A stretch of 64,000 bases of DNA from Leptospiraceae bacterium (GCA_040217195.1 JAVJNR010000003.1:160001-224000); one strand, 5' to 3'; shown: positions 1,394 through 64,000, counted from the first letter of the stretch. Notes: generated from the letters alone by a model not told the origin. Made by a program: numbers and translations.

Positions 1394-3058
1394 ATGGCTG
1401 CAGAGGCTGAAAATCACCGCCAGTTGATTAATTCTCTGGAAGAAGCATCTGTTCTGCTAGATCGAAGCGGAGTGGTTCTGCACAGTAATGCGCAATTCAA
1501 GGCATTGCTAGGCGAAGATAAGCCAGAACAGAAGGCAATGCTGGACTTAATCCCGGACCTGCCCCGCCAATGGCTGGAAACCTCGCTGGAAGCCGATGAA
1601 GTATCCGCCTTTATATTTGATTCCTCGGTAACGAACTCTGCACTGCTGGTAAGTATCCTTCCTTCGGAAGAATATATGATCATGATGCTATGGGAAAAGG
1701 AGCAGGAACTGCCCACCATGGTACAGCTACAAAACCTGGTACCTTTTGGCATTCTTTTGCTGGATTCCCGGGGAGAAATACTTAAGAGCAACCCATCCGG
1801 CGGCAGATTGCTGGGCCTACTTTCGACAAAAAACGTTAATCTAAACAGTATCTGGGTAATGTCCAGGGACCGAGCCAATCGTCGCAGGCCAGAAGAGAGA
1901 GCTCCCTGGAATCGTGCCCTGGAACAGGAACGCAGTGTACATATGGGCCCCGTAAGCCTGGGACAATGTGTACTGGACATACACTGTATTCCCATTCAGA
2001 GCAAATCGAGACAGGTTCTGGTAGTACTTCAGGATATGTACAGGGAACATAGGAACCAGAACCGACTCAGAAACGCTCTGGAAATCAATCGTAGCATCAA
2101 TGCATTGCTCATGGATTTGCTGCGTGTTCCTGGCCCGGAAGAAACCATCCATCGAGCATTGAGGGGAGCACTGGAATTAATTGATGCCGATGAATGCTTC
2201 CTGATTACAGAAGAGGAAGTGGGCTCTCGCATTGCCTTTGTAGAAGGAAGTAGAAAAGACTTGATGGGACGGGAAAACCCGGTGGATCCCTGGCAAGTAG
2301 ATCCGGCTCTGAGAAAAGAAGGGGCGCTGCTCATCCGTAGGATGGAAACCGTACAGAGCCTGGTGCCAGATCTTGCACACCATGAATATCAGGGTTGCCT
2401 GGCCGCCTCCGTACTCTACGAAAAGGACCGCCGGGGACTGGTATTAATTCTACGCAAACATCATCGATTCAAATCCAGGGAAAGAAGGATTCTACAATTA
2501 TTGGTACCGGCGCTGTCCGCGGCCATCTTCAAGTTTCGCTACGAAGCAAGACTGAATCTATTGGCTACCACGGATCCATTAACCGGCCTGTACAATCGGC
2601 GTCGCTTCTTCGCTGTTCTGGAAAGTGCAGTAAGGGATGAAGAGTCACCGGCTCTACTGCAGATGGATCTGGATTTATTCAAGCAGATTAATGATAGCCT
2701 GGGTCATCAGGCTGGAGATCGGGTTCTGGAAGTTCTGGCAGCGGAACTAAAACGGCGGCAAACAAAGGGAATTACTGCAGCCAGGACCGGAGGCGAAGAA
2801 TTCATGATTCTGTTACGCAAGGGGCAGGCAGAGAATTACCGATCCGTGGCAGAAAATTTGCGTCAGGCTGTGGAATCACTGATCATTGACTGGGAACCGG
2901 AACCAATTCGCGTTACACTTTCTATCGGAGGCACACGGTATAATCCAGGTGAGAAACTGGCCGATTTCTACGCCAGAGCAGATAAGCTACTGTATCAGGC
3001 CAAAGAATCGGGACGAAATCGCTGCTGCTTTGAGCCACTCAGTGTTAGCCGATCCTGA
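1394..3058 (+). CDS. PAS/GAF sensor diguanylate cyclase
   Basis: C-terminal DPLTGLYNRR, DLDLFKQINDSLGHQAGD, RTGGEEF. N-terminal PAS-like and GAF-like segments; no RxxD I-site visible. Start set at MAAEAEN. Confidence 0.9.
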   Translation: MAAEAENHRQLINSLEEASVLLDRSGVVLHSNAQFKALLGEDKPEQKAMLDLIPDLPRQWLETSLEADEVSAFIFDSSVTNSALLVSILPSEEYMIMMLWEKEQELPTMVQLQNLVPFGILLLDSRGEILKSNPSGGRLLGLLSTKNVNLNSIWVMSRDRANRRRPEERAPWNRALEQERSVHMGPVSLGQCVLDIHCIPIQSKSRQVLVVLQDMYREHRNQNRLRNALEINRSINALLMDLLRVPGPEETIHRALRGALELIDADECFLITEEEVGSRIAFVEGSRKDLMGRENPVDPWQVDPALRKEGALLIRRMETVQSLVPDLAHHEYQGCLAASVLYEKDRRGLVLILRKHHRFKSRERRILQLLVPALSAAIFKFRYEARLNLLATTDPLTGLYNRRRFFAVLESAVRDEESPALLQMDLDLFKQINDSLGHQAGDRVLEVLAAELKRRQTKGITAARTGGEEFMILLRKGQAENYRSVAENLRQAVESLIIDWEPEPIRVTLSIGGTRYNPGEKLADFYARADKLLYQAKESGRNRCCFEPLSVSRS

Positions 3059-3148
3059 CAGACCAGGTCCCGTCTCCAGGTCCCGCCGATTATTGCAATG
3101 AAAGTAAGATATGCTATTTGCAATGGATATTAAACTTGGAAAGCTGTA

Positions 3149-4033
3149 TTAGTCGTCCTTTACTGTCTCGCCCGGCGGCATCTCTTCTGCAGAAAGTAAC
3201 TTAAATTGAATTCTCTTTAGCTGGCGAACTACCCGAGTAAAATAGTCTTTGGACCAGATAATCTCTTCCAGTTCTGGATCAAGAATGGAAATCATTTCCC
3301 CTGGAACCCATCGCACGGACTCACCGTTTCCGTCACGCACCCGACCCTCGGAAAGGGCTCTGGATATTTCCCGGGCCCCATGTTTTCTCAAATCCCGAAT
3401 CAGACCGCGAAAGAAAGCTTCTGTGGCAGGATCATAAAAACGAAACTCTCGATGAAACAGTAATGCATCGTGAAAATATTCTGGAATGTTGAAAGCTCCT
3501 CTAGCGCCCACACCCAGAGCAAGATTTGTAATAAAATCGCTTATCTGCGAAAAGATTCCCAGACCAGGAGCATTCTGGCCTGGAAAAAGTCGATCCGGCC
3601 GAATATTCTTACTTCTGGGATGCTGAGTCAATAACCAGTCAATGTACAGCAGCTTTTTTTGAGGAGCCCCTGGATGAAGACGAAAGCGAAAATAAGAAAC
3701 CTTCAGACGAATATGGATAAGCACCATGTCCGATTCAGGATCTTTAATAAAAATTCGCTGATCCAGATCGGATAAATAATGCAGTTCAAGAAGCGGCTCT
3801 GCATAACCTTTTTCCTTTAGCTCGGCGAATATACCGGACCAGTCCATCAATTCTCGAATTTCAGTTTCTGAGAACTTTCCAAAGATTCGCACTTCGCCGT
3901 CCGGATTCTTAATTAGCGGACCGCCATGCAAATCTTCTTCAATATCCAGTGGCTCCAGATTAGGAAGCTGAATTTCCTTATCGGAACCGCCTTCCCGGCG
4001 GCTGGCTTTATCTGAGTCGCCAAACAATCCCAT
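3149..4033 (-). CDS. HDAC-associated conserved protein, possible divergent GNAT fold
   Basis: Long ORF whose ATG (4033) overlaps the HDAC stop (TAATG). Motif LYIDWL...PGLGIF...LALGVGARG. Confidence 0.65.
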   Translation of the reverse strand: MGLFGDSDKASRREGGSDKEIQLPNLEPLDIEEDLHGGPLIKNPDGEVRIFGKFSETEIRELMDWSGIFAELKEKGYAEPLLELHYLSDLDQRIFIKDPESDMVLIHIRLKVSYFRFRLHPGAPQKKLLYIDWLLTQHPRSKNIRPDRLFPGQNAPGLGIFSQISDFITNLALGVGARGAFNIPEYFHDALLFHREFRFYDPATEAFFRGLIRDLRKHGAREISRALSEGRVRDGNGESVRWVPGEMISILDPELEEIIWSKDYFTRVVRQLKRIQFKLLSAEEMPPGETVKDD

Positions 4034-4926
4034 TAACGCAGACCTGCCAGAACTTCGCATGTTTGTACGTGTAAATCTACAGTGTCCTGGGTATTGATTG
4101 CATAGCCTCCGGCAAGTACTGCGAACATGGGAATCTCTTGAAAGGCATCTCGCACCAATGTATCGCGGGCAGCCAGACCTTCTTTGCTGATAGAAAGTCC
4201 ACCCAGACGATCATTCTCATAGGGATCTACGCCTGCAACGTAGGCAACCAGGTCTGGCTTGAATCTAGATTTAATCTGCTTCAGGCTGTCTGACAAAACT
4301 TCCAGATATTTTTCATCCGAAGTACCGCTTTCCAGTCCAATGTTCAAGGATCCCTTTTCCTTGGGCGGATAGTTTTTCTCTTCATGGATGGAAAAAGTAA
4401 ACACGGTTCTTGAGTTGCGAAATATACGGGCCGTACCATTCCCCTGATGTACATCCAGATCTATGACCAGAGCTTTACGAATCCTTTTCTGTTTCTGCAA
4501 AACTCTTACAGCAATGGCAACATCGTTCAGATAGCAGAATCCCTCTGCATGGTCCGCAAATGCATGGTGAAACCCACCGGCAAGATTCATGGTAAGTCTG
4601 TGCTGAAGAGCCAGTTCTGCAGCAAGTAATGTGCCCCCGGACCCCAGGAAAAATGCATCTACGATGGTACGGTTTAACGGCAGCTCGCTTCGGTACACCC
4701 GCTTGGAGAAATTAAGTTGCTTTAGATCTTCCAGGTAGGGCTTTTTGTGCACCGTGCCAGCTTCCTCATAGCTCAGCATCATGGGCTCCAGGAATTTATG
4801 CTCCTGGAATCGTTCATTCTGGCGCAAAGCCTCGCGGATAAAGCGGTATTTCACAGATGGGAACACATGTTCCCCTAAATCCATGTTATAATTTTCTGAG
4901 TAGATGAAGATGGGCAATGTAGACAT
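4033..4926 (-). CDS. histone deacetylase family Zn-dependent deacetylase
   Basis: GGFHHA, GFCYLND, DLDVHQGNGT, AGVDP, GGY motifs. Start set at MSTLPIF. Confidence 0.93.
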   Translation of the reverse strand: MSTLPIFIYSENYNMDLGEHVFPSVKYRFIREALRQNERFQEHKFLEPMMLSYEEAGTVHKKPYLEDLKQLNFSKRVYRSELPLNRTIVDAFFLGSGGTLLAAELALQHRLTMNLAGGFHHAFADHAEGFCYLNDVAIAVRVLQKQKRIRKALVIDLDVHQGNGTARIFRNSRTVFTFSIHEEKNYPPKEKGSLNIGLESGTSDEKYLEVLSDSLKQIKSRFKPDLVAYVAGVDPYENDRLGGLSISKEGLAARDTLVRDAFQEIPMFAVLAGGYAINTQDTVDLHVQTCEVLAGLR

Positions 4927-9541: not shown

Positions 9542-10597
9542 ATGAGAAATCTATCTTTCGTAGATCGATATCTAACTCTCTGGATATTTCTGGCAATGGC
9601 CCTGGGCGTAAGTCTGGGGGCCGCCTTTCCCGTAATATCCGAGTCCATACATAAGCTATCTATAGGTCAGACCAACATCCCCCTGGCCATTGGACTTATA
9701 TTGATGATGTATCCCCCTCTTGCGCGAGTCGACTATTCCCAATTACATCTAGTGTTTACGAACGGCAAAATACTTACACTTTCCATTGTAATGAACTGGA
9801 TCATTGGTCCACTCCTGATGTTTTCACTGGCTGTGCTTTTTCTATGGGATAGGCCGGAACTAATGTCCGGGCTCATATTGATTGGCCTGGCTCGCTGCAT
9901 TGCTATGGTGCTTGTATGGAATCAACTGGCACATGGTAGTCCGGAGTACGGGGCTGGACTGGTAGCACTGAATAGTCTGTTTCAGGTATTTGCGTACGCT
10001 CCTCTGGCATTGATATTTTTGAGTGTACTACCTGATATGCTGGGTCTGGAGTCCTATGAGGTGAATATTTCCACATTGGATGTGGCCATAAGTGTAGGAA
10101 TCTATCTGGGAATTCCCTTTCTGGCTGGTTTTCTCAGTCGCTTGATTCTAGTTCGCATCCGGGGGCACCAATGGTATGAAAAGAAATTCATTCCAGCCAT
10201 TTCGCCTCTTACTCTGGTAGCGCTTCTGTTTACCATTGTATTGATGTTTTCTCTTAAAGGTGATCAGATACTCACTTTGCCCATGGATGTGCTTCGAGTG
10301 TCACTTCCGTTGCTTCTCTACTTCCTTATTATGTTCTTTGTTGCCTTTCTGGCCGGACGATTGCTAAAAGCGAAATACCCGGAGAATGCGGCGCTGTCTT
10401 TTACGGCTGCCGGGAACAACTTTGAACTGGCCATTGCTGTGGCCATTTCTGTGTTTGGATTAAATTCCGGTCAGGCCTTTGCCGCTGTACTGGGACCTTT
10501 GATTGAAGTACCGGCTCTGGTACTTCTTGTGCAAGCTTCTCTGTGGCTGCAAAATCGGCTCTATAAATCTCAGAAATCCAACGAGGCAAGATCATGA
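9542..10597 (+). CDS. acr3: ACR3 family arsenite efflux transporter
   Basis: [46 protein letters not shown]; about 10 TM helices. Confidence 0.95.
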
Positions 10598-11301
10598 ACT
10601 GGAAAGAATTACGTTCCAGGTACCAGGAGATGCAAAGGCTGGCCCGGTACGTTGCAAAACGTTCTGCAGCCGCCGAAACAGTACGCCTTCTATTCGTTTG
10701 CACTCACAATGCCAGAAGAAGTCAGCTGGCCTGCGCCATGGCTCCCTATATCTGGCATCAGCTTGTAACAGAGATGGATTCTGACAAAGAGGCTCAGCGT
10801 ATAGAGTCCTACAGCGGCGGAAGCGAAGTAACAAGAGTTCACCCCAATACGATTCGAGCTTTGATTCGCTCCGGGTATTCATTAATAGAAGGCAGTCCTG
10901 ATGTGCCCTCCAGCGAAGCGGGTTCCAGTCCAACAATTTCAGGATCTGGGTCGGTAACCGTTTCGAAGCATACAGACTTTCAGGATACAGACTCCGACGT
11001 TGTTGGAAATTCCATTTACCGGCTGCAGGATCCCCGGGGACATGAAATGGAGCTATTTTCCAAGCTCCTGGATCATCCGCAAAATCCTGGAAGCCACTTT
11101 GCTGCAATAATGGTTTGCTCCAATGCAGATGAGGCCTGTCCTTTTGTACCCGGCGCCGATGTGCGAATCTCTTTGCCTTTTGAAGACCCGGGCAAATTTG
11201 ATAACACGGAAAGAAGCGCAGAAGCCTATGACAGCGCCATGGAGGCGATCGCCAGAGACCTCTATAGTACGTTTGCTATGGCTCTGGGGAATATAGATTA
11301 A
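10594..11301 (+). CDS. arsC: LMW-PTP family arsenate reductase
   Basis: [12 protein letters not shown]-loop, MVCS..ADEACP, FEDP. ATGA overlap with acr3. Confidence 0.8.
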
Positions 11302-49666: not shown

Positions 49667-50323
49667 ATGCTAATGCAAATTGTGGCCTGGACGGCCTCTC
49701 TGTTCGTATTCCTCTCATTCTTTATGAAAACCATGGTCCCGCTTAGAATCATGGCTATCGTCAGTAATCTGACCTTTATCGCCTATGCATTGCTTGGAAT
49801 TCAAGAGGGCGTCTTTGACAAAGTGGCGGCCATTTTCGTTCTACACGTGGTGCTGTTACCCTTGAATATCACTCGTCTTTACCAGATGACATCTTTGATT
49901 AACAAGGTGCACCGGGCTTCCAACCATGAATCAGGAGTAGATTACTTAATTCCTCATATGTCAAAGAAAGAATATGAGAAGGGTCATGTACTCTTTCGCC
50001 AGGGCGATCCAGCAGATGGGATTTTTTTCATTCAAAAGGGCACCGTCCAGCTTCCGGAATTCGGCAAGACCATGGAGGCAGGGGCAGTATTCGGGGAAGT
50101 GGGAATTTTTTCTCCGGACAATGTGCGAGCCGGTACGGTAATCTGCGATGATGCCTGCACGGTTTACCAGATTTCGCGCGAAAAGGTATTGCAGCTTTAC
50201 TATCAGACTCCGGAATTTGCCTTCTATATGATGCGCTCGGTGGCCCAGATCGTTCAAGATAATACTGAAATATTAACAAGCATGGCCGGAAAGAAAGAAG
50301 CCGCTCAATTGAAGGCAGGCTGA
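49667..50323 (+). CDS. membrane protein with cyclic-nucleotide-binding domain
   Basis: Three N-terminal TMs; LFRQGD...FGEVG...RAGTV. Confidence 0.85.
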   Translation: MLMQIVAWTASLFVFLSFFMKTMVPLRIMAIVSNLTFIAYALLGIQEGVFDKVAAIFVLHVVLLPLNITRLYQMTSLINKVHRASNHESGVDYLIPHMSKKEYEKGHVLFRQGDPADGIFFIQKGTVQLPEFGKTMEAGAVFGEVGIFSPDNVRAGTVICDDACTVYQISREKVLQLYYQTPEFAFYMMRSVAQIVQDNTEILTSMAGKKEAAQLKAG

Positions 50324-53747: not shown

Positions 53748-54059
53748 ATGGGCTTGCGAACCCACCGTGATAAATACTACTTGCTGTTTTGTCTTTTGAT
53801 CCTTCTGGGACTCTACAGATATTATTTCCCGAATCACTCGGAAGAATCCCACATTCCACCTTCCGCAGAGTATAGCATAAACTTTCATAGAGAGGCAGAG
53901 TTCATTGTACCGCCAGGCCCTGCCCGATCGGTGAATGCCACGGGTCAGATGCGTGCACTATTAAGCGAAGAATTGAATCGCCAGGATTTGTACAATCGTT
54001 TCCCGGACAACAAATCTGCATCCGATTCCAGGAGTACGGAGTTTTTTGGATGCAATTAG
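53748..54059 (+). CDS. small hypothetical protein with one TM
   Basis: 103-aa ORF with YYLLFCLLILLGLY; overlaps the vWA start by 10 bp. Confidence 0.4.
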   Translation: MGLRTHRDKYYLLFCLLILLGLYRYYFPNHSEESHIPPSAEYSINFHREAEFIVPPGPARSVNATGQMRALLSEELNRQDLYNRFPDNKSASDSRSTEFFGCN

Positions 54060-56137
54060 TCAGTTGCCGAATCTTTAACCGGCTAATCTTATTAAAGCTC
54101 GTTCCAGTTGTTCTACTGCTACTCTCCAGTGCAATTCTGGCCAAACCGGACAAATCTAGAAGTAAAGGTCATTTCGTATCGGTTGTGCTTGTTCTGGACA
54201 TTTCCGGCTCCATGTCTGTAAACGATCCTGATCGACTGAGCTGGGACGCAGCAAATCTAATGGCGAATCTTCTGAGCCAGGGGGATGAAATTGGCCTGGT
54301 GCTTTTTAATCATGAAGTAGTAAGCACTCTTGGTCCTCTGCGAATTGGCCAGGATAATATCAGTAGAGATACAATCAAAGAAAGGCTTTCCGGGCGATAC
54401 AATGGCGGTACGGATATTCTTGGTGCCGTAAACAAAGGCATGGATATGCTGGGAAATGTACAATCGTCGCCCAGACGAAAGAAGGCAATACTGGTTCTCA
54501 CGGACGGCGCAGATCAGAGCTCACTGGACTCCTATAGAGCTGCCCATCTAAGATCTCTGAACCAGGGAATTACGATTTTTCCTGTTGCAATGGGAACCGA
54601 GCCCAGCAAAGAAAAATTGCTGGCACTTACCGACGAATCAGAACTATTGCAGGCCAATCAGCCCCAGGAATTACCGGATACATTTTCTATTATCTACGCT
54701 CGCCTATTCGACTCCATGATTTCGCGACCGCAGGGCACTGGAACAGGCTTTGTTTTTCAGGCCCATCCGCTTACCGCTGAAATGAACCTCATCCTTTCGG
54801 ACGATGATCCAGGCAGCTTGAACTTTACCGTTTATGATCCAGCTGGAAAGGCCCTGTCGAGCAACGAGGCCAGACACGGAAAGAAGTTCATTTCGCTTCA
54901 GATCGTTTCACCCACTCCGGGAGAGTGGAAAGTTCAAACCACAAGAATCCCGGACAATATGAGTTTGCTCCAGATTGCAGACCTGAAGCTAGAAGTGAAA
55001 TGGGGAGATGTTAGCCCACTGAAGAAAACAATAACCGTGGACCAGGCCAGATTGCTTACAGAAAACGGCACTCGGATCCTGGACGAAGAGCGGTACTATC
55101 GAGGCACAAGGTTCGAACTGGTGGTGCGGGGCCCTGGTGGAGAGAAAACATATGAACTAAGAGACGATGGTCAGGGAGCGGATCGCCAGGCCAACGATCG
55201 GATTTTTGCAGGCACTGGAAAGATCGATGGAATTGGCCAGTACAGCTATTATGTAAGAGTTCACTTTCCTGTCTTTAAACCCACCTCCGAAAGGTACTTT
55301 CTGGCCCTCCAGGAGAAGGTCTGGTTCAGGCTAAAATGGCAAACCAATGCAGCCCCGGCGGTACAGCAGGGACAGATCCTGGGTCTGCCCATTCAAATAA
55401 CAGAAAACAAACCGGCCGATCCAGAGGGAGAAAACATCCATGTTCGACTACATCCAAAATCTGGGCCCGACTGGAACTCTATTGAGCTATTAAATACGGA
55501 ACTAAATGTTAAAGAACGTTCTCCGGGAACCGTGCGAATTCGTCCGGATTATTACCGCGGCATAGATCTTGGATTGTTTAGCGCAACACCCGGTACCTAC
55601 GAAGGCGAACTGGAGTTTTTCTATCCGGGTCAGGATAGCGTTCGCCTGCCAGTCAAATTCGAAGTAAGATCGGCCCCTTTTCTTGATAAATTGCTGGGAG
55701 CCCTTATATTCTGGTCTTGCATTGCGCTGGTGATCGCAATTCTAATGGGACTGCGAAAGGCTGTGTGGTTTCCAAGAAAAATGAGAATCTTCCTTTGGGA
55801 TGAACATGGACAGAGAAAGCGCAGCAGCGATATCCTGCCCCGAAGCAAGTGGCTCTATGGAAAAAGCAGCCTTCAAATTGGCTCAGCCACTCTGTTCTCC
55901 CGAGGACATAAAAGCACCAATCATGATCTATATTACGAGGAAGACGGTATCCGGCAGAGAGAGCCGGTAGGAAAGCACCAAATCATACTCACACCCGCCG
56001 GCGGTTATGTGGTGGTGAGCGATGGTTACTTGAGCTTTGATCAGGAAATGAATCTGGGAGATCAAATCGGCCGGACTTATCGGCGAAGCCCCCTATCCCC
56101 GGAAGAAGAAGTCAGAATAATAGAAAGCGAATTCTAA
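54050..56137 (+). CDS. exported vWA (MIDAS) protein with C-terminal TM and cytoplasmic tail
   Basis: Signal peptide; DISGSMS, GGTD, LTDG MIDAS residues; LRDDG...D...ND.IF (choice-of-anchor X-like); TM LLGALIFWSCIALVIAILMGL. Confidence 0.85.
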   Translation: MQLVSCRIFNRLILLKLVPVVLLLLSSAILAKPDKSRSKGHFVSVVLVLDISGSMSVNDPDRLSWDAANLMANLLSQGDEIGLVLFNHEVVSTLGPLRIGQDNISRDTIKERLSGRYNGGTDILGAVNKGMDMLGNVQSSPRRKKAILVLTDGADQSSLDSYRAAHLRSLNQGITIFPVAMGTEPSKEKLLALTDESELLQANQPQELPDTFSIIYARLFDSMISRPQGTGTGFVFQAHPLTAEMNLILSDDDPGSLNFTVYDPAGKALSSNEARHGKKFISLQIVSPTPGEWKVQTTRIPDNMSLLQIADLKLEVKWGDVSPLKKTITVDQARLLTENGTRILDEERYYRGTRFELVVRGPGGEKTYELRDDGQGADRQANDRIFAGTGKIDGIGQYSYYVRVHFPVFKPTSERYFLALQEKVWFRLKWQTNAAPAVQQGQILGLPIQITENKPADPEGENIHVRLHPKSGPDWNSIELLNTELNVKERSPGTVRIRPDYYRGIDLGLFSATPGTYEGELEFFYPGQDSVRLPVKFEVRSAPFLDKLLGALIFWSCIALVIAILMGLRKAVWFPRKMRIFLWDEHGQRKRSSDILPRSKWLYGKSSLQIGSATLFSRGHKSTNHDLYYEEDGIRQREPVGKHQIILTPAGGYVVVSDGYLSFDQEMNLGDQIGRTYRRSPLSPEEEVRIIESEF

Positions 56138-56214
56138 GAAGCTTTCCATTCAGGACCTTGCTCGCATGGAAACACTGGATGCAATAATTGGATTCGCATA
56201 ACATTGAGGAAGAA

Positions 56215-59200
56215 ATGGCAAAAGAAATCGAAAGTTTTACACCACATTTAGTACTGGGAATTGGAGGAACCGGAAGTCGAGTGCTGCAGCGACTTATGGA
56301 GCTCACCTCAGCGCAGAAAGACCGAGTCAAGGCACTGCAAAAAAACAGGCTTCTAAATTTTGTTGCTATTGATACGGACGTAAACGATCTTCAGAAGCTT
56401 GGATTGCCGCGGCAGAATCAAATTCTCATCTCTGAAGGTGTGAATATGCCGGTCTACGCTGGCACCCGAAAAAGAGAAGATGAGTTAAGACCACTGGATG
56501 AACGTACTTTTCGCTGGTTTCCTCCCAGAGATGAGGTGGGCACATCGTTTGAAACACATAACCTGGGAAACGGGGCTGGCCAAATTCGATTCTACTCCAG
56601 GATCGGATGGGAATATACATGCCAGAATATGAATCTGGAAAGCCAGTTTGAAAACCTGCTGGGTAGCCTGATCAGTATCGACGTGAACAAGACTGTTCTT
56701 TCCGAAAGTCCAACCATTATTGCAACCATAGTTGGATCCATTGCAGGAGGAACCGGCTCAGGGGTCTTCTTACAGGTCGCCGCCATGCTGAAAGATATCG
56801 CGGCCAGGAAATTGAAAAGACAGCTTCTGGTCAAAGGCTACTTCTTTACTGCTGATATCTATACGCGGGGAGGCCTACTGCCAGAAGAGCAGCATGATGA
56901 CATAAAGGCCAATACCTATGCCTGCCTGAAAGATCTAAATGCTTTTAATCGATTACTAACTCGCATCAATCGACCAATTCTGTTCGATGAAGGGGACCTG
57001 GATTTTATCTGGAACCCAAGGGATGGTCGCCGGGATCTGAGCACAATTATGTACCGTCCATACGATATGGTGTATATTGTAGATGCTACAAATAGCACCG
57101 GCACATTACCGGTGGGACCCGGCATAGAGTTTCGCGCCTATGAGTCCATGCTTGCTGATGCACTTTACTGCTCCATATTCACTCCAATTTCATCCAAAGC
57201 GCTGAGCATAGAGAACAATGAAATAATAAACAAGATTGCTGCAGAACAATCCGGAGATGACTTCCCCGGGTATGGAGCGGTAGGTGCTGCAAGAGTCGTA
57301 TTTCCGGTGGATGATGTTTCAGATTTCCTTAGCTACAAGTATTGTCAGAGTATTCTGAGTTCCCAGTGGGCACGACTGGATCGAAGCCATCAGGAAAACC
57401 TGGTGGAATTCAATCGAGCCCAGGACCAGGGACGGTATAACGTCAAGATGCCTGAAAGACATCAGGACTTTATTCGAGACTTTGAATCCGAAGTGGCCCG
57501 GGGCGATGAAGCGGATCCCTCAATCGTAGCCGCATCCAACCATTACAAATATCTCACAGGTACGGAGCATTCCGGAGGTATACCTCATGGCGCTGATCTA
57601 AAATCCGTTCTGGAGCAATCCGCATTTGTTCGCGCCCTGGACGAAGAAATAGAACATCGAATCCTGGGGCATTTCCATACGGACAGTCATAACGTAATTT
57701 CTGAAAAGGGATTCTCCAGAACCATGATTCGAGATTACAATACTGTGGGTATCCTGCAACAGGACCGAAATCATCAGGTAGAATATTTGCGAGGACTGTT
57801 GCACAACAATGATCGCCACCTAAATGCAATCAAGCAGACGATACGCGACCTTGAAGCCACCCTGGCCCGCCAAATAGTGAGAGACTGTCTAGATGATGAT
57901 GCCTCCGCGAGAACTTCTGAGCGAATGGATCAGCTCAAAGATTATCAGCTTATTCGATGGCTAACTCTCGACCCCACAAAGAAGGGGCATAACATATTCT
58001 TTATACGATACTTCCTTTCCAGAGAACTGGAAAGTCTGCGAGCGGCACTGGAATCCCTGAAGAAAGAACGACATTCCCTGGAAAGAAAGTTTCAACGAAA
58101 TTCTAGAGCCTTTGATGATCCATCGACCGAAGACATTGTAGAAACTCCACTCCAGTTGCTGGAACAGAACATGGCCGGCTCCGGCATCAATGGAGTGATG
58201 CAGAAATTTCATGATGTGGTTACTTTTCGAAATAACTTTGTTCATGGTATGGTTTCGGGTACCGGAGAATGGAGTCAGGATCTGGACACCTGGATGAAGG
58301 ATAGATTGCGTCTGGAGCTAGAAGCGTTTGCCGTTGATATAAAAATGCAGGTTTATGAAGCTCTGTTCAAGCGCCTGGGGTTTGATCAACTGGGAAGTCA
58401 GGGTGGATTGCTGGATGTAGTCCACAGGCTGGCAGATACAATCATTTCAATCAGCGAATTATTCGAACGAAATGTTGAAAACAAAAGACAACGAAATTTA
58501 CAGGGCGGTAAGCTTGCAGGCGCTGTTCTTGTACATTGTCAGCCAGAGTCCAAAGATTACATATGGAAATCTGTGGGCGGAGAATTGAGAAGTGCCAATT
58601 CCGTTCTCGTGGATACTTACCAGGGATTGATCAACTTCTGCGAGACTACCTGGAGAGATATTCAAAGCATTTCCGCACCCAGCCCGGAAGTTGAAAAGCA
58701 AAGGATTTCTTCTATCTATCAGAGATCTTTCCGATTGAATGCATATGACGAAACTGATCCGGGACCAGTATTTGAAAAGTTAATCCAGCCATCCAGGAAA
58801 TTTCTGGAGGCAGCCTTGCGAAAGAAATACAATGTATTGAGCGCCATGCTGGAAGAGGCAGAATATGTGAGGGGAGTTTCCTTTGCAGACACCGATGAGA
58901 AAATGCAGTACCTGGCCGAGCAACTGGGCATAGCGTTTTCCAATGCTGCACCGTTTACGAATGTGTTCAAGGATGCAACTCCCATAAATGTTATCGCATA
59001 CAATCATGGGCTAATTGATAGCGGAATGCATGAAATTCTGGAGAAGTTTGGTGGAGATCGCAGTGTTTCGCAGGGAGGAAGTATCGATGATCCCAATGTG
59101 GTCATCTTCTACCGTACAATGGTAGGCCAGAAGATGTCTGAATTCAGAAATGTATTGGAGTTCCGACGATACTATGTGGATTCAGTGATCAATCGACATA

Positions 59201-59739
59201 TCCATCGTGAATGGCCGGATCTCTTGCCAGAGCTTTCCGATGAAATTGAGCTGGAGCATTTTAAAACCTTCGCTTTCTGCGAAGCGGCCGGTATCATTCA
59301 ATGTGCAGATGCGGATCGCGGAGAATATCAGTATGATCTTGCATTCAGGGACCCGTCCCATCAGGAATGGCGGCCTCTGGGCTCAAGCTACCGTAATTCA
59401 CTCGTTGGTCTGAGGCACATGATTCGAAAGCACTCCGAATTTCGTAATGCTATCTCAGACCAGGAAAGCAAAGAACGATCCAGGTATGATCGCCGTTCCA
59501 GTTTTGACTTCGCAGATAAACTATTCCATCTAATGGATAGCTTTCAGTCCAGAGCCAGCAGCATCAAAGATGGTCTGGATGATAAGAGCATTACGCCGCA
59601 TATCCTGGAGAGACTGGCCGAGGCCTGTTCGGAAATTGTGGTTGAGATGGTTTCTGGCACTGAAGTCGAATTCCAGGAGGCCAGAAAGGGAGCCAGAGAG
59701 CGAAAACCTGGAAATGGATCTCAAGTAGTCGGACGATAG
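56215..59739 (+). CDS. large FtsZ/tubulin-like GTPase (Tubulin_2 / FtsZl1 type)
   Basis: LGIGGTG, AIDTD, GAGQIR, GSIAGGTGSG, ANTYACLKDL; long helical/coiled-coil C-terminus. GAGGA RBS before the ATG at 56215. Confidence 0.9.
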   Translation: MAKEIESFTPHLVLGIGGTGSRVLQRLMELTSAQKDRVKALQKNRLLNFVAIDTDVNDLQKLGLPRQNQILISEGVNMPVYAGTRKREDELRPLDERTFRWFPPRDEVGTSFETHNLGNGAGQIRFYSRIGWEYTCQNMNLESQFENLLGSLISIDVNKTVLSESPTIIATIVGSIAGGTGSGVFLQVAAMLKDIAARKLKRQLLVKGYFFTADIYTRGGLLPEEQHDDIKANTYACLKDLNAFNRLLTRINRPILFDEGDLDFIWNPRDGRRDLSTIMYRPYDMVYIVDATNSTGTLPVGPGIEFRAYESMLADALYCSIFTPISSKALSIENNEIINKIAAEQSGDDFPGYGAVGAARVVFPVDDVSDFLSYKYCQSILSSQWARLDRSHQENLVEFNRAQDQGRYNVKMPERHQDFIRDFESEVARGDEADPSIVAASNHYKYLTGTEHSGGIPHGADLKSVLEQSAFVRALDEEIEHRILGHFHTDSHNVISEKGFSRTMIRDYNTVGILQQDRNHQVEYLRGLLHNNDRHLNAIKQTIRDLEATLARQIVRDCLDDDASARTSERMDQLKDYQLIRWLTLDPTKKGHNIFFIRYFLSRELESLRAALESLKKERHSLERKFQRNSRAFDDPSTEDIVETPLQLLEQNMAGSGINGVMQKFHDVVTFRNNFVHGMVSGTGEWSQDLDTWMKDRLRLELEAFAVDIKMQVYEALFKRLGFDQLGSQGGLLDVVHRLADTIISISELFERNVENKRQRNLQGGKLAGAVLVHCQPESKDYIWKSVGGELRSANSVLVDTYQGLINFCETTWRDIQSISAPSPEVEKQRISSIYQRSFRLNAYDETDPGPVFEKLIQPSRKFLEAALRKKYNVLSAMLEEAEYVRGVSFADTDEKMQYLAEQLGIAFSNAAPFTNVFKDATPINVIAYNHGLIDSGMHEILEKFGGDRSVSQGGSIDDPNVVIFYRTMVGQKMSEFRNVLEFRRYYVDSVINRHIHREWPDLLPELSDEIELEHFKTFAFCEAAGIIQCADADRGEYQYDLAFRDPSHQEWRPLGSSYRNSLVGLRHMIRKHSEFRNAISDQESKERSRYDRRSSFDFADKLFHLMDSFQSRASSIKDGLDDKSITPHILERLAEACSEIVVEMVSGTEVEFQEARKGARERKPGNGSQVVGR

Positions 59740-59740
59740 G

Positions 59741-62404
59741 ATGGCTTCCAAGGTTTCCAGCCTGGTACTTCAGATTGGCCATCAAATCCAGCGGTTGAAC
59801 GAAGACCTGCAGGATGAATTGTCAACCGAAGACCGAATTCGATTTCTGCGAGCAGAATTAAGGTCTTTGAATAAGGGGCAGACAATCCTGCGCCTGTCCG
59901 GTAATAGTGATTCCGGAGTTCATGAGGTGGACCCTGCAAACCAGGCTGGGATTTATCAGGAGCAACCGCTCTTAGATCCTATCTATACATGCCTACTGGA
60001 TGAGATTCAGGCATTGCTGCAATTCGAGCCAGGCGATCATATGAATCGTCAGGTCCGAATCATTGTGCATGGCTCATTAACGGCTGCAGAAGACCGTAGC
60101 TGTTTTCTGAAGATTCTGCAATACCTGGCAGTGGTTCTCAAGAGCTTTTCTGCAAATGTCATTCGTCTGGTTCCGGTCATTCCATTCGCCAGCCGAAACG
60201 ATGCACAATTTTTCGCAAACCTGAGAGCCCTGGATGAAAGGTTCCGGGAAATGGAGCAAATCTACAGGTATGGCTCTGCGACTCCACCGGAGCTCCATGG
60301 TAGCCATTATCCACCCTATTTAAAGAGAGTAATTCTGATCTCGGATGACCTGGGGGGTCAGATCATGAACTCTGATGAACAGTCTTCGCTCTTATTCTTA
60401 ACTCTGCGACTTCTATGCGAACCGGGTGGATTCGTAAACAGATATAGAATCTATAGAGATGATGATACCCAATCAGATAGTCTGGAGAAATGGCTTCAGG
60501 TGGACGATCTTCTGAGTCCTGTGGGTGAAGTAGTTGATCCCTGGTCCGGTCCATATAGCTCTATTGGTTTTATTCACTATGGCATAGATGTAAAAAGAAT
60601 TAATCGAGTGATGAAGCTCTACCTGTATCATCTACTTATTGAAAAGCTGGCCCAGCCCGAGCTCATAGAAGGAGAATACGTTTTTCAGAATGCGGACAAT
60701 GAACTAGAACAATTAATACTGCGCCAAATGCAGGGTCAGGTCCATCCGGGTAGCCTGGAAATCATGAACCAGGAGGAATGTAGCGAAGCCTGGAACGAGC
60801 TGGTCCGAATTCAGAGCGTTAGCAAAGAATCGAAAAAGCTTTCCCTGGACCAGCCTGCATTGAAAGAGCTTGCCCGAAGCCTGCGAAAAGCCGGCCAGAA
60901 TGAACAAAAAGGATCCACACAATCAGATGTTATTGCTGTAATCGATGACCTCCAATCCACACTGGACCGACAGCTACCAGACTATGAGGATCTGGGTGCC
61001 CAGTTCTCAGATCTTTATCGGCGTGTGGCCCGGATTGTAGATCAGAAGGCTGTGCATTTTGCCAGTCAGATCAAAAGAAGATTCAGCCTGGTTGTGGAAT
61101 CTATTGCAAATTATTCTGAAGTGAATGAATCCGATTCTACATTGCATCAGGCAAGGCAGCTTAGCGAATATTTCAAGGAAAGCAGTGAAAAATCCATTCT
61201 CTCTCGTTGGCGCGGTCTGTCTTATGTATTGCAAAGAGCTTACAGAGAGCTTGTGACCCATCGCCAGAACATTCATCATCTTAGACTGACTCGCAGCAGA
61301 CTGGCCCCGGTGGAACACCTGCAGGAATCCGAGAATGGATTTCGCAGTAAATTGCAGGAAATTCGAAAAAGAGCCCTGAAACTCGGAAATGCCAGGTTCA
61401 GCCTGCTAATACCAGCTCTTCTGGGAACAATACTTGGTCTGACTGGATTAATTATACATTCCTCCCCTTTCGCTCCAGTAAGCGTTAGACTACCTTTTCA
61501 TCTACTTCATACAGCCATTGATCTAATTCTTCCAGATTCCATGCGAAATGCCACATTCTTCGCAGGACAGGCATCCCTCACTCTACCTGGAGCAATCTTC
61601 TGGGGCATTTTCATAGGAGCTGGTTTTCTATCCGCATACCTGCTTCGTCGCCATCAGTCCAGCAAGGCAACCCATCTCCAGGAGGAAGTAAATGAAGCCC
61701 TGAATTCCTATCTACAATCTCTGAAGATTCGGCCGGACCAGATCTTAGAGTCTCAGGCCTATTTCCGAGAAGGAAGATTTCTGCAGGAATATGCCAACCT
61801 CATTCGCCGCACACTTTTTCATTTTCATTCCTATGATCATGCATCCGGACAGGTGGCTCGCAGAATTCGACATGAATTGTTAATTCGTGGAGCCAGGCTA
61901 GAAGGAAAGAAGCTTCGCTTTGATGCAAACCATTTGCGACAGACCACAATAGAGTCCGACATGGTGGATCGATTCGAAATCAGTCTGCTCAAATCCCGGG
62001 AACTGGAAAGAATGGCAGACCGAATTCTGGAAAGGGATTTAACCGGAGAACTTCTGGCCGCACTTCAGGTCTTTTCCTGCGAAGAAAACCAGGAAGATAT
62101 AATGGATCGCAAATTGGATGAGTTGCTGCTACGCGATCTACCGCTCCATGAAGTTGAACGGATAATTTCACAACATGTAGAAGATTCAGCTTCCGAGAGC
62201 CTAAAGCAGGCAGCCACAGGCAAGAGACCCTTCTGGGCTCTATCTCTGAATCCAGAAAACTACACTGGCGGCGCTTTTGTGCGCAAAACCTTTCAGGGGG
62301 ACCGCAATTTCGGTGAAATGTTTCATCTGTTCTATGTTCGGCGAGGATTCTCCCTGGAAGAACTGGAACGGACCATCCGCTCCGCAAGTCAGGAGGCGCT
62401 TTGA
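59741..62404 (+). CDS. membrane protein with probable degenerate tubulin-like N-terminal domain, coiled coils and 2 TMs
   Basis: Motif order parallels the upstream GTPase; TMs FSLLIPALLGTILGLTGLII and LPGAIFWGIFIGAGFLSAYLL. Confidence 0.7.
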   Translation: MASKVSSLVLQIGHQIQRLNEDLQDELSTEDRIRFLRAELRSLNKGQTILRLSGNSDSGVHEVDPANQAGIYQEQPLLDPIYTCLLDEIQALLQFEPGDHMNRQVRIIVHGSLTAAEDRSCFLKILQYLAVVLKSFSANVIRLVPVIPFASRNDAQFFANLRALDERFREMEQIYRYGSATPPELHGSHYPPYLKRVILISDDLGGQIMNSDEQSSLLFLTLRLLCEPGGFVNRYRIYRDDDTQSDSLEKWLQVDDLLSPVGEVVDPWSGPYSSIGFIHYGIDVKRINRVMKLYLYHLLIEKLAQPELIEGEYVFQNADNELEQLILRQMQGQVHPGSLEIMNQEECSEAWNELVRIQSVSKESKKLSLDQPALKELARSLRKAGQNEQKGSTQSDVIAVIDDLQSTLDRQLPDYEDLGAQFSDLYRRVARIVDQKAVHFASQIKRRFSLVVESIANYSEVNESDSTLHQARQLSEYFKESSEKSILSRWRGLSYVLQRAYRELVTHRQNIHHLRLTRSRLAPVEHLQESENGFRSKLQEIRKRALKLGNARFSLLIPALLGTILGLTGLIIHSSPFAPVSVRLPFHLLHTAIDLILPDSMRNATFFAGQASLTLPGAIFWGIFIGAGFLSAYLLRRHQSSKATHLQEEVNEALNSYLQSLKIRPDQILESQAYFREGRFLQEYANLIRRTLFHFHSYDHASGQVARRIRHELLIRGARLEGKKLRFDANHLRQTTIESDMVDRFEISLLKSRELERMADRILERDLTGELLAALQVFSCEENQEDIMDRKLDELLLRDLPLHEVERIISQHVEDSASESLKQAATGKRPFWALSLNPENYTGGAFVRKTFQGDRNFGEMFHLFYVRRGFSLEELERTIRSASQEAL

Positions 62405-64000
62405 TGGGTTTTCTGGACGGCATCCTTTCGCTTGCCTATTTCTTTTTTGTATTGTTTCTACTGATGCATGGTATTCAGAATCTCAAAGAGTGCTATGCCG
62501 CTCTTAAGAGATATCGCTCGGGCAAGAAAGTACAATATGAAAAATCCCTCCAGCACCTGGCTCCCGGTGCGGGCGCTGTATTTGCTGGAATCCTTACTTT
62601 CTTTATTCTCTCTGTACCTGCACTGATAGAAACATTGTTCTATGCAGACAGCAATTCCATTCTATTTCGCACGGCAACTGCTCTGGCCTTTGAATATGAA
62701 TTACTGGGAAGCATTTTCTCGGCTGCAGGCGCTCCGGCCACTCCCGATGCCGTAGCTCAGATCATTCTGGACATTATTCCTGTCCATTTCTGGCAGCTAA
62801 TTCTCTTTCTCATCGGATATTTCGCATATCGAATTCTAACCTCCCAATTCTCTCGCATGTTTCAAGAGCCATCCGCTTTGATGCGATCAAGGCTGCCCGT
62901 AGATTTTGAGAATTCAGATCCAGAAACTCCACCCGTACTTTCGCCCTATACTTCCTTTGTATCCGGATCCATTTTTTTCTTTATTGGTGCAGGTATGCTG
63001 CTATTCCCATCTGCAGAGATGCAGTATGAGATTATTAGCGGCCGCGACATGGGTGGCTTCCTCTCTGTAATTCACGATCTCCAGGCTTTCATTCTACTCA
63101 GCAGTCAGTCCAATCATCATGTATTTCAGAATTCACATATTGCCGATTTTTTGCCCTGCATTCTGGCGCTGGTAGGTATGGGTATTCTGGAATTCACCGC
63201 CAGAGGATTATCAGAAAAATCCCGGCCGCCCTATACCGGAAATCAATCTGGAATTCATCTGGCTTTTAAGCGAAATCAGTTCGATTTCCTGGAAGATTTG
63301 CAGAAGAAAATTGGTCAGGTGCAGCCGCTGTTCGAAAATAATCCAACGTCCGGCGGTCGTAGCCCGCGAATAGAAGAAATAGATAGGGGGGCGCTGAAAA
63401 GGACTGTAGCAGAAACTCATGAGGAGTATCGCTTTGAAACTCTGGAAACCGAAAATCCGTTCTGGAGCGATATTCTGGAAAGACTGAACGTTGATCGTCT
63501 GTACACAACTCAATGGGAAGTAATCCAGAAAACAGCCACCGGTCAGAAAGTAGTCCTTTCAATGGAACCTGGTTCGGGCAAAATGCTTTCTGTTTTTCTG
63601 TCTGCCATGTACCAGGTAGTGCAAAAATTTCAGTCCGTACTGATCCTGGTTCCAGATGATAGCATTGCCGATGAAATCAAAGCCAGGTATTATGCGAAAA
63701 TCCAGGATTTACACTGGATGCAGGGATTATCCTTGCAGATTCTTACAAGCGATGAGGACAGAAGAGACACCGGCCATGTAACTGCCCTGGCCATGCAGGA
63801 ACTGCCCAGCGAAAGGCAGCCAGACATTATTCTTGCAACTCCCGATAGGCTTCATGGACTATTGAAAACCAGAGCCAGAGCACGGGATTTTATTCAGAAT
63901 CTGGGATTTGTAGCCATTGTTGAGGGTTCTTTGCATGGACATGTTCAGTCTCTACATACAGCTATGGTGCTGCGAAGATTCTTCACCATGGTTCGTCTGG
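62404..64000 (+). CDS. multi-TM protein fused to a degenerate SF2 (Hrq1/MrfA-like) helicase domain, partial; absent from ORF track
   Basis: Hand translation from ATG 62404 (TGATG overlap) is open to the window end: about 5 TMs, then LYTTQ, EPGSGKM, LILVP, IILATPDRL, VAIVEGS, SLHTAMVLRRF. Confidence 0.8.
   Translation, partial: MGFLDGILSLAYFFFVLFLLMHGIQNLKECYAALKRYRSGKKVQYEKSLQHLAPGAGAVFAGILTFFILSVPALIETLFYADSNSILFRTATALAFEYELLGSIFSAAGAPATPDAVAQIILDIIPVHFWQLILFLIGYFAYRILTSQFSRMFQEPSALMRSRLPVDFENSDPETPPVLSPYTSFVSGSIFFFIGAGMLLFPSAEMQYEIISGRDMGGFLSVIHDLQAFILLSSQSNHHVFQNSHIADFLPCILALVGMGILEFTARGLSEKSRPPYTGNQSGIHLAFKRNQFDFLEDLQKKIGQVQPLFENNPTSGGRSPRIEEIDRGALKRTVAETHEEYRFETLETENPFWSDILERLNVDRLYTTQWEVIQKTATGQKVVLSMEPGSGKMLSVFLSAMYQVVQKFQSVLILVPDDSIADEIKARYYAKIQDLHWMQGLSLQILTSDEDRRDTGHVTALAMQELPSERQPDIILATPDRLHGLLKTRARARDFIQNLGFVAIVEGSLHGHVQSLHTAMVLRRFFTMVRL

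Follow-up and report, generated by a model that had tools for sequence, protein, structure and literature searches.

A predicted membrane-anchored and probably inactive MrfA/YprA-type helicase in a vWA-FtsZl1 operon of a Leptospiraceae bacterium

Introduction

A 64,000-nucleotide (nt) stretch of DNA from a Leptospiraceae bacterium (GCA_040217195.1, JAVJNR010000003.1:160001-224000), referred to here as the window (G000:C10:160001-224000, where G000 is the window's own genome), ends inside an open reading frame (ORF) in which a multi-pass membrane domain precedes a helicase-like region. This arrangement raises the question of whether such a protein is real and still a motor and, if it is not a motor, what a helicase fold might do at a membrane. 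An original prediction, made from the sequence alone, had read the ORF as a membrane-anchored pseudo-helicase. This overall reading is supported by the analysis reported here, as the protein matches a superfamily 2 (SF2) helicase profile, its membrane-anchored homologues do not keep the DExH motif, and its membrane and helicase parts are not separate genes. The complete pseudo-helicase is predicted to share the fold of MrfA/YprA, is under purifying selection as judged by sequence comparison, and is encoded by the fourth gene of an operon that also specifies a vWA protein and an FtsZl1-type tubulin-like GTPase, for which it could serve as a membrane scaffold.

Results

The pseudo-helicase frame contains no stop codon from a TTG at position 62401 to the end of the window (533 amino acids, aa), and its start is the ATG at 62404, which overlaps the TGA of the upstream gene by one base. 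When the neighbouring DNA of the same contig was added, the full gene that the original prediction had proposed to obtain was recovered, with 1186 codons from the TTG and 1185 aa from the ATG (G000:C10:222404-225962; its end is position 10962 of the extracted locus L002). The predicted unlisted ORF of more than 530 aa without a stop is therefore borne out, while the operon context with vWA and FtsZl1 had been missed. The features of the gene that lie in the window are as follows.

62391..62396, + strand: Shine-Dalgarno sequence AGGAGG, 7 nt upstream of the ATG at 62404
62404..64000, + strand: gene 4, the MrfA/YprA-like, membrane-anchored pseudo-helicase; first 532 of 1185 aa in the window
62410..63195, + strand: N-terminal membrane domain; five predicted transmembrane (TM) helices
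63499..63513, + strand: Q motif LYTTQ; Gln kept in all seven membrane forms and both canonical rows
63565..63585, + strand: motif I EPGSGKM; P-loop Lys kept, Mg-binding Thr/Ser replaced by Met
63640..63675, + strand: motif Ia position, LILVPDDSIADE; DNA-contacting PTKAL replaced by acidic residues
63826..63852, + strand: motif Ic IILATPDRL; mostly conserved
63919..63930, + strand: motif II position VEGS; DELH replaced, Asp lost and Glu kept
63949..63981, + strand: post-motif-II helix SLHTAMVLRRF; MrfA-type, first Arg of RR invariant in 9/9 aligned rows

The helicase-like body was assigned by profile and structure comparisons. The Pfam DEAD family matches residues 370-506 at 37.1 bits, above its curated cut-off of 26 (E value 3e-9), so that an SF2 profile match, the lack of which had been named as a ground for rejecting the prediction, is present above threshold; the top NCBIfam row is TIGR03817 (DECH_helic). 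The top PDB sequence match is B. subtilis YprA/MrfA (6znp, E 3.4e-5) and covers RecA1 only. An AlphaFold2 model of residues 301-1186, computed with a 19-row alignment, has a mean predicted local distance difference test score (pLDDT) of 54.9, with values of 60-87 at protein residues of about 345-830 and below 50 over the last ~350. With this model, Foldseek ranks MrfA first (6znp_A, E 1.7e-18, 723 columns), and VIA-align superposes it on 6znp_A with a Z score of 27.6 and a root-mean-square deviation of 3.4 Å over 432 residues, compared with Z scores of 22-23 for Brr2, the Pol-theta helicase, Lhr and Hel308.

Comparison of the four closest family members with nine canonical MrfA-type helicases by hhalign gave 99.6% (E 9e-25) over 491 columns and MrfA residues 38-566, a span that corresponds to RecA1, RecA2, WH and OB in the domain scheme given by Roske et al. 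(PMC7797055). A language-model lead for residues 540-1186 pointed to Helicase_C, WHD_HRQ1 and MZB clusters (0.93). Together, the model and the alignments predict an MrfA/YprA fold from RecA1 to the OB domain. The Helicase_C and DUF1998 zinc domains that the original prediction had proposed to look for fared differently, as neither Helicase_C nor MZB/DUF1998 is matched in a Pfam scan of the full protein, but a RecA2 fold is predicted by the structural model and by hhalign. For the C-terminal part (residues 931-1186, the last 255 residues), hhalign gave 0.2% against both MrfA and the group B relatives defined below. An acidic, Ser/Glu-rich stretch of low complexity occupies L002 positions of about 10490-10600 (residues of about 1030-1065) and is ~30 residues longer in the related genome G005.

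The state of the helicase motifs was counted in seven membrane forms (the target, P0004, P0005, P0006, P0007, P0008 and P0015), which were aligned with two canonical helicases. The target, P0004 (75% identical to it), P0005 and P0006 constitute group A, and P0007, P0008 and P0015 constitute group B. The first Asp of motif II is lost in all seven membrane forms (replaced by V, V, P, L, P, P and P), the next residue being E or D in each of them, whereas both canonical MrfA-type rows retain DELH. A homologue with DExH, which would have spoken for lineage-specific decay, is thus not among the membrane forms. The GK[T/S] of motif I is intact in two of the seven (SGKT in P0005 and P0006), while the target and P0004 read GKM and group B reads GR[K/A/T]; the motif I Gly is invariant, and the Lys is retained in group A and replaced by Arg in group B. 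Motifs Ia (PTKAL) and Ib (DGDT) are lost in 7/7, as are motif V and the GRxGR of motif VI, for which the RecA2 alignment is of low confidence. A Cys4 zinc cluster is kept in P0007 and P0008 and absent in the target, P0004, P0005, P0006 and P0015 (2/7 kept). The net charges of RecA1 and RecA2 are -1 and -4 in the pseudo-helicase as compared to +3 and +7 in the canonical MrfA of the same genome, and the C-terminal 255 residues carry a net charge of -29.

The motif positions given in the original prediction were all recovered (LYTTQ at 63499, EPGSGKM at 63565, LILVP at 63640, IILATPDRL at 63826, VEGS at 63919 and SLHTAMVLRRF at 63949). Two of its motif names need qualification: the LILVP site, named Ia, is confirmed but has lost the Ia DNA-contact residues, and IILATPDRL, named Ib, is motif Ic. 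MrfA binds adenine through Tyr56 and Gln59, and its contacts to the gamma-phosphate are made by Lys82 and Arg384 (PMC7797055). The pseudo-helicase retains the equivalents of the Tyr, the Gln and the Lys, and those of Thr83, Asp185 and Arg384 are lost. ATP hydrolysis and canonical DNA translocation have therefore probably been lost, and it is possible that binding of an adenine nucleotide has been retained as a latch. Of the two ligands proposed in the original prediction, nucleotide is plausible because the Q-motif Tyr/Gln and the P-loop Lys are kept; incoming nucleic acid is unsupported because motifs Ia, Ib and V are lost in 7/7 and the RecA lobes are net acidic.

In comparison to MrfA/YprA of B. 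subtilis (PDB 6ZNP, 6ZNQ and 6ZNS; Roske et al., PMC7797055), the pseudo-helicase has in common the predicted RecA1-RecA2-WH-OB architecture, the Q-motif Tyr/Gln, the P-loop Lys, motif Ic and the LRR helix after motif II. It differs from MrfA in its five-helix membrane anchor and acidic body, in the loss of the motif I Thr/Ser, motifs Ia and Ib, the motif II Asp and motifs V and VI, and in having neither a Cys4 cluster, nor detectable CON/MZB similarity, nor an MrfB partner.

The genome also encodes a canonical MrfA of 772 aa with DELH and a C-terminal Cys cluster. This gene follows that of a 506-aa exonuclease, with an overlap of 4 nt (L013 374-4209; G000:C2:137373-141208); we take the exonuclease to be mrfB from its signature FIDTETTGL. 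Since the genome keeps a canonical MrfA, the pseudo-helicase would be an extra, diverged paralogue and not the repair helicase.

Among 1.84 billion protein representatives, an exhaustive HMMER search recovered 13 at E <= 0.001, of which five, apart from the cluster of the query itself, have an N-terminal hydrophobic region ahead of the helicase lobe. The fusion of membrane domain and helicase recurs in G005, in G001 (in pieces), in the P0006 cluster, in P0005 and in group B; the P0006 cluster has six members from JGI, ENA and Logan, five of which are 1281 aa long. As the fusion is seen in every relative, it is not an assembly error, and the two parts are not separate genes joined by a sequence error, which the original prediction had held to be conceivable. 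Group A and group B match each other by hhalign at 99.2% over 479 columns. Word-based searches, among them a profile word search over lengths of 496-2242 aa, returned close relatives only. A weak profile match on contig C106 of G012 was rejected, being an ordinary DEAD-box RNA helicase.

Between the pseudo-helicase and its G005 orthologue, non-synonymous divergence (dN) is 0.15 and synonymous divergence (dS) about 2.5, and the ratio of about 0.06 is only rough because dS is saturated. RecA1 is the best conserved region in this comparison (92% identity) and the C-terminal part the least (53%). These substitution patterns indicate that the gene is under purifying selection and is not decaying. 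A maximum-likelihood tree of the helicase core was built from the 19 rows of alignment A5, all of which were retained. In this tree, one branch with 100/100 support parts the eight membrane rows, among them two pairs of near-copies, from the 11 canonical rows, eight of which come from a single bacterial family. The tree has no root, its branches are long, its sequences are uneven in composition, and its sampling of canonical helicases is sparse.

The about five hydrophobic segments that had been predicted in the first ~265 aa were found as five 19-mers with a Kyte-Doolittle mean of at least 1.8 (residues 4-22, 58-76, 121-139, 184-202 and 247-265). The loops after TM1, TM3 and TM5 are rich in Lys/Arg, so that by the positive-inside rule the helicase-like body would face the cytoplasm. 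At the entry to TM3, the motif D-x7-D-[IF]-[FIV]-P (window 62743-62779, residues 115-127) is invariant in 4/4 group A sequences, whose Asp residues at this site group B lacks. This motif may represent a polar site at the membrane boundary. The AlphaFold2 model of the membrane domain was unusable (mean pLDDT 41.5), and an Atlas search with this domain gave no usable match. An internal repeat, looked for given the ~63-aa spacing of the TM segments, was not found (all z < 1).

Genes 1 to 5 form one translationally coupled operon in which the pseudo-helicase is the fourth gene; genes 2-5 are joined by overlaps of 1 nt or 4 nt or by gaps of 1 nt. The other genes of the operon are as follows.

54050..56137, + strand: gene 1, 695-aa vWA protein; Pfam VWA E 2.6e-11, choice-of-anchor X domain
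56188..59739, + strand: gene 2, 1183-aa FtsZl1-type tubulin-like GTPase; Pfam Tubulin_2 PF13809 E 3.2e-47, 161.9 bits against a cut-off of 27
59741..62404, + strand: gene 3, 887-aa protein with a predicted TM hairpin (554-572 and 612-635); matches no known family
L002 10959-12008 (would be window 65958-67007), beyond the window: gene 5 (p349), 349-aa Zn-ribbon protein without a known family

By sequence and hydropathy, the vWA protein has a signal-peptide-like N-terminus, an intact MIDAS motif (DISGS) and a single TM segment at residues 548-566, which is followed by a predicted cytoplasmic tail of 129 aa. This tail (window 55748-56137, residues 567-695) is beta-rich, matches no family and is a candidate contact for cytoplasmic partners. 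The FtsZl1 protein carries the signatures GGTGS (T1) and GGTGSG (T4). A proposal that the 887-aa protein is a degenerate tubulin, made from ...IIVHGS... and ...DDLGGQ..., was unsupported, as hhalign against FtsZl1 gave 0.1% and a PDB profile search gave nothing below E 1.7. The start of p349 overlaps the stop of the pseudo-helicase by 4 nt; the CxxC-x16-CxxC ribbon of the protein is invariant, and its C-terminal domain is strongly conserved with respect to G005. At the place where a zincin would have HExxH, p349 reads YEFML. The idea that p349 is a split-off DA1-like peptidase or MZB module likewise found no support, since there was no Pfam match at E <= 1 and PF12315 has no match in the genome at E <= 10.

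Identical five genes and flanks are found in G005. A more distant version of the operon is carried by the metagenomic contig L015, which encodes a P0006-type protein with 23% identity to the target; in order, it contains an FtsZl1 C-terminus (E 8e-13), a membrane protein of ~880 aa (E 6e-5, collinear), the pseudo-helicase and a gene that overlaps it by 4 nt. The counterpart of the 887-aa protein on L015 (722-4046) is divided between ORFs 722-1645 and 1410-4046, which overlap and lie in different frames; this could represent a frameshift or a longer or split form. A scan of genome contigs for the context of group B found none.

Full-length orthologues were found in 3/41 related genomes (G000, G005 and, fragmented, G001), and the other 13 of these genomes with a match have RecA1-level matches to their own ~770-aa MrfA only. 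In a sample of 401 genomes from the phylum, the full-length protein occurs in G000 alone, and 10 others have matches of the canonical MrfA type only. PF13809 matches 11/41 related genomes, and FtsZl1 of the type found in the window is present in G000, G005 and a short contig of G012. A second FtsZl1 type of ~1280 aa is commoner than the window type and has no helicase-like neighbour in G000. Upstream of this paralogue (L033 7923-11750, on G000:C5; 1275 aa, Tubulin_2 E 9e-41) are a patatin-like phospholipase gene and a gene for a 300-aa protein. Among the matches listed, this split ~1280-aa type also appears in eight other relatives.

The genes for an FAA hydrolase and a transglutaminase-like protein that flank the operon are ~0.9 kb apart in G002, with one DUF1554 gene between them, compared to ~15 kb here, and the operon is therefore an accessory insertion or deletion. 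Downstream of the operon, L002 12203-13748 encodes two tandem DUF1554-like secreted paralogues, of which the empty site in G002 has a single copy (47% identity).

Predicted operons with vWA and FtsZl1 genes and many membrane proteins were described by Makarova and Koonin 2010 (PMC2875224), and a Tubulin_2 (FtsZl1) gene and a vWA gene with intact MIDAS are joined in one operon here as well. The clostridial cassettes vWA, FtsZl1, B5 and B12, tabulated in Additional file 5 of that paper, have the same gene order as genes 1 to 4, with sizes of 732-861, 1136-1183, 658-678 and 1418-1435 aa as compared to 695, 1183, 887 and 1185 aa here. For genes 3 and 4, this likeness rests on the tabulated order, the size and the membrane association of the accessory proteins. 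In that paper, B12 carries the annotation of a zincin protease that is membrane-associated and joined to a Zn finger (PMC2875224), but gene 4 has neither a peptidase nor a Zn finger, and the Zn ribbon here lies on the separate, following 349-aa gene. No zincin (DA1-like) peptidase match was found on gene 4 or p349, including PF12315 as searched above. The word helicase is absent from the text and the six supplements of PMC2875224.

The systems described by Kaur, Burroughs, Iyer and Aravind 2020 (PMC7159879) likewise combine a tubulin-family protein that has a C-terminal helical extension with a membrane protein that has an extracellular vWA domain. Unlike those systems, the operon has no GAP1-type GTPase, FNIII-repeat or HRDC protein recognised by Pfam or NCBIfam. 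These scans gave no match to a GTPase family on the operon proteins, and they could miss a GTPase if it had diverged far within the 887-aa or the 349-aa protein. In PMC7159879, helicases are effectors of MoxR-vWA systems only and not of tubulin systems.

Discussion

We consider there to be about an even chance that the pseudo-helicase serves the FtsZl1-vWA machine encoded by its own operon as a membrane scaffold or adaptor without motor function. In such a mechanism, the five-TM pseudo-helicase would build a membrane platform together with the 887-aa hairpin protein and a vWA/MIDAS receptor in the periplasm, and FtsZl1 polymers would be recruited to this platform or organised on it by the dead helicase body. 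An outside signal could thereby be coupled to GTP-dependent assembly at the membrane, with a bound nucleotide possibly serving as a latch. Every functional step in this scheme is conjectural; what the data establish is the predicted fold, the motif changes, the absence of the Zn cluster, the selection and the gene order.

Several observations weigh against this reading. The context is known from two independent lineages only (one Leptonemataceae genus and L015), and the membrane domain and the last ~350 residues are poorly modelled. The saturated dS and the shape and sampling of the tree limit what can be drawn from the divergence of the family. Finally, SGKT in P0005 and P0006, together with the acidic residue that follows the lost Asp in 7/7, leaves room for a residual or unusual NTPase.

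In a stronger form of the scaffold reading, which we put forward tentatively and regard as considerably less likely, an old clade of membrane-embedded dead MrfA/YprA helicases would act as the receptor or nucleator of FtsZl1. With the vWA/MIDAS receptor it would constitute a trans-envelope switch through which a ligand outside triggers polymerisation inside, the helicase fold having been exapted as a latch that binds nucleotide and does not hydrolyse it.

In the main rival reading, which is somewhat less probable and on balance unlikely, the protein would act as a sensor for a conflict system of immune type. Its anchored body would attach to DNA or RNA of an invader, or to a phage protein, but not translocate, and would then induce polymerisation of FtsZl1 or a membrane effector activity of the five-TM domain itself. 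Neighbourhoods with tubulin, vWA and GTPase genes are interpreted as conflict systems by Kaur et al. 2020 (PMC7159879), and defence roles have been described for YprA helicases in a report (10.1101/2025.09.15.676423) that showed the ARMADA system to protect against phage. The helicases of DISARM (DrmA), Druantia (DruE), Dpd and ARMADA belong to the same family as the pseudo-helicase by fold and sequence. Such a role would also fit the accessory nature of the cassette (flanks of ~0.9 kb in G002 and ~15 kb here) and its patchy distribution (full-length in 3/41 relatives and 1/401 genomes of the phylum sample). The defence helicases, however, accompany nucleases and have no membrane anchor in the systems set out in that report (10.1101/2025.09.15.676423), whose main text contains no occurrence of tubulin, FtsZ, vWA or transmembrane, and we read them as active motors.

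The PADLOC models match none of the five operon proteins, Pfam and NCBIfam recognise neither a nuclease nor another effector domain, and searches of plasmid and phage collections gave no matches. The flanking genes with a Pfam match belong to metabolic or housekeeping families. Among 16 flanking proteins, PADLOC gave a single match, to a generic cyclic-nucleotide (cNMP)-binding domain. The protein concerned (218 aa, window 49667-50323) matches Pycsar/TIR effector models through the cyclic-nucleotide-binding domain only, and no cyclase or effector domain was seen in it. Binding of an invading nucleic acid is further disfavoured by the loss of the DNA-contact motifs Ia, Ib and V in 7/7 and by the acidic lobes.

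It is improbable that the pseudo-helicase is still a nucleoside triphosphate (NTP)-driven motor that uses a non-canonical active site, made of the motif I Lys and the Glu/Asp after the lost Asp, for example as a membrane-tethered translocase working with FtsZl1. FtsK, which works with FtsZ, would be a loose analogy for this. In favour of such a motor are the invariant Q-motif Gln and motif I Gly, the retention of the Lys in group A, the acidic second position of motif II in 7/7, and the fact that no region is more conserved than RecA1. On the other hand, the Mg-binding Thr/Ser is Met here, the Lys is Arg in group B, and none of the seven membrane forms retains motif Ia, Ib or V, or the arginines of motif VI, whose counterparts in MrfA touch the gamma-phosphate (PMC7797055).

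Finally, a decaying pseudogene, or an assembly or sequencing chimera of a membrane gene and a helicase fragment, could explain the missing catalytic motifs and the rarity of the family (13 matches at E <= 0.001 in 1.84 billion representatives), but is hardly credible given an unbroken frame of 1185 aa with its own Shine-Dalgarno site, the same fusion in G005, G001 (pieces), the P0006 cluster (six members, three sources), P0005 and group B, and a dN far lower than dS.

Our literature search found no paper that describes a membrane-anchored inactive helicase with a tubulin-like/vWA operon. In the full texts searched, the term FtsZl1 is used only by Makarova and Koonin 2010, and a 2023 phylogeny of FtsZ and tubulin mentions Tubulin_2 proteins and mentions neither helicases nor vWA. 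FtsZl1 (Tubulin_2) is the most diverged branch of the tubulin/FtsZ family, and there are two published readings of its role, namely membrane remodelling and an immune-like conflict system. A dead helicase partner that is membrane-anchored, conserved and under selection provides a concrete handle on the function of FtsZl1 and is a candidate for its membrane tether. The pseudo-helicase would also show clearly how the fold of a DNA motor can be put to use again in a part that is not an enzyme. With it, the YprA family, which is otherwise discussed as consisting of soluble repair and defence motors, gains a membrane-bound, inactivated branch.

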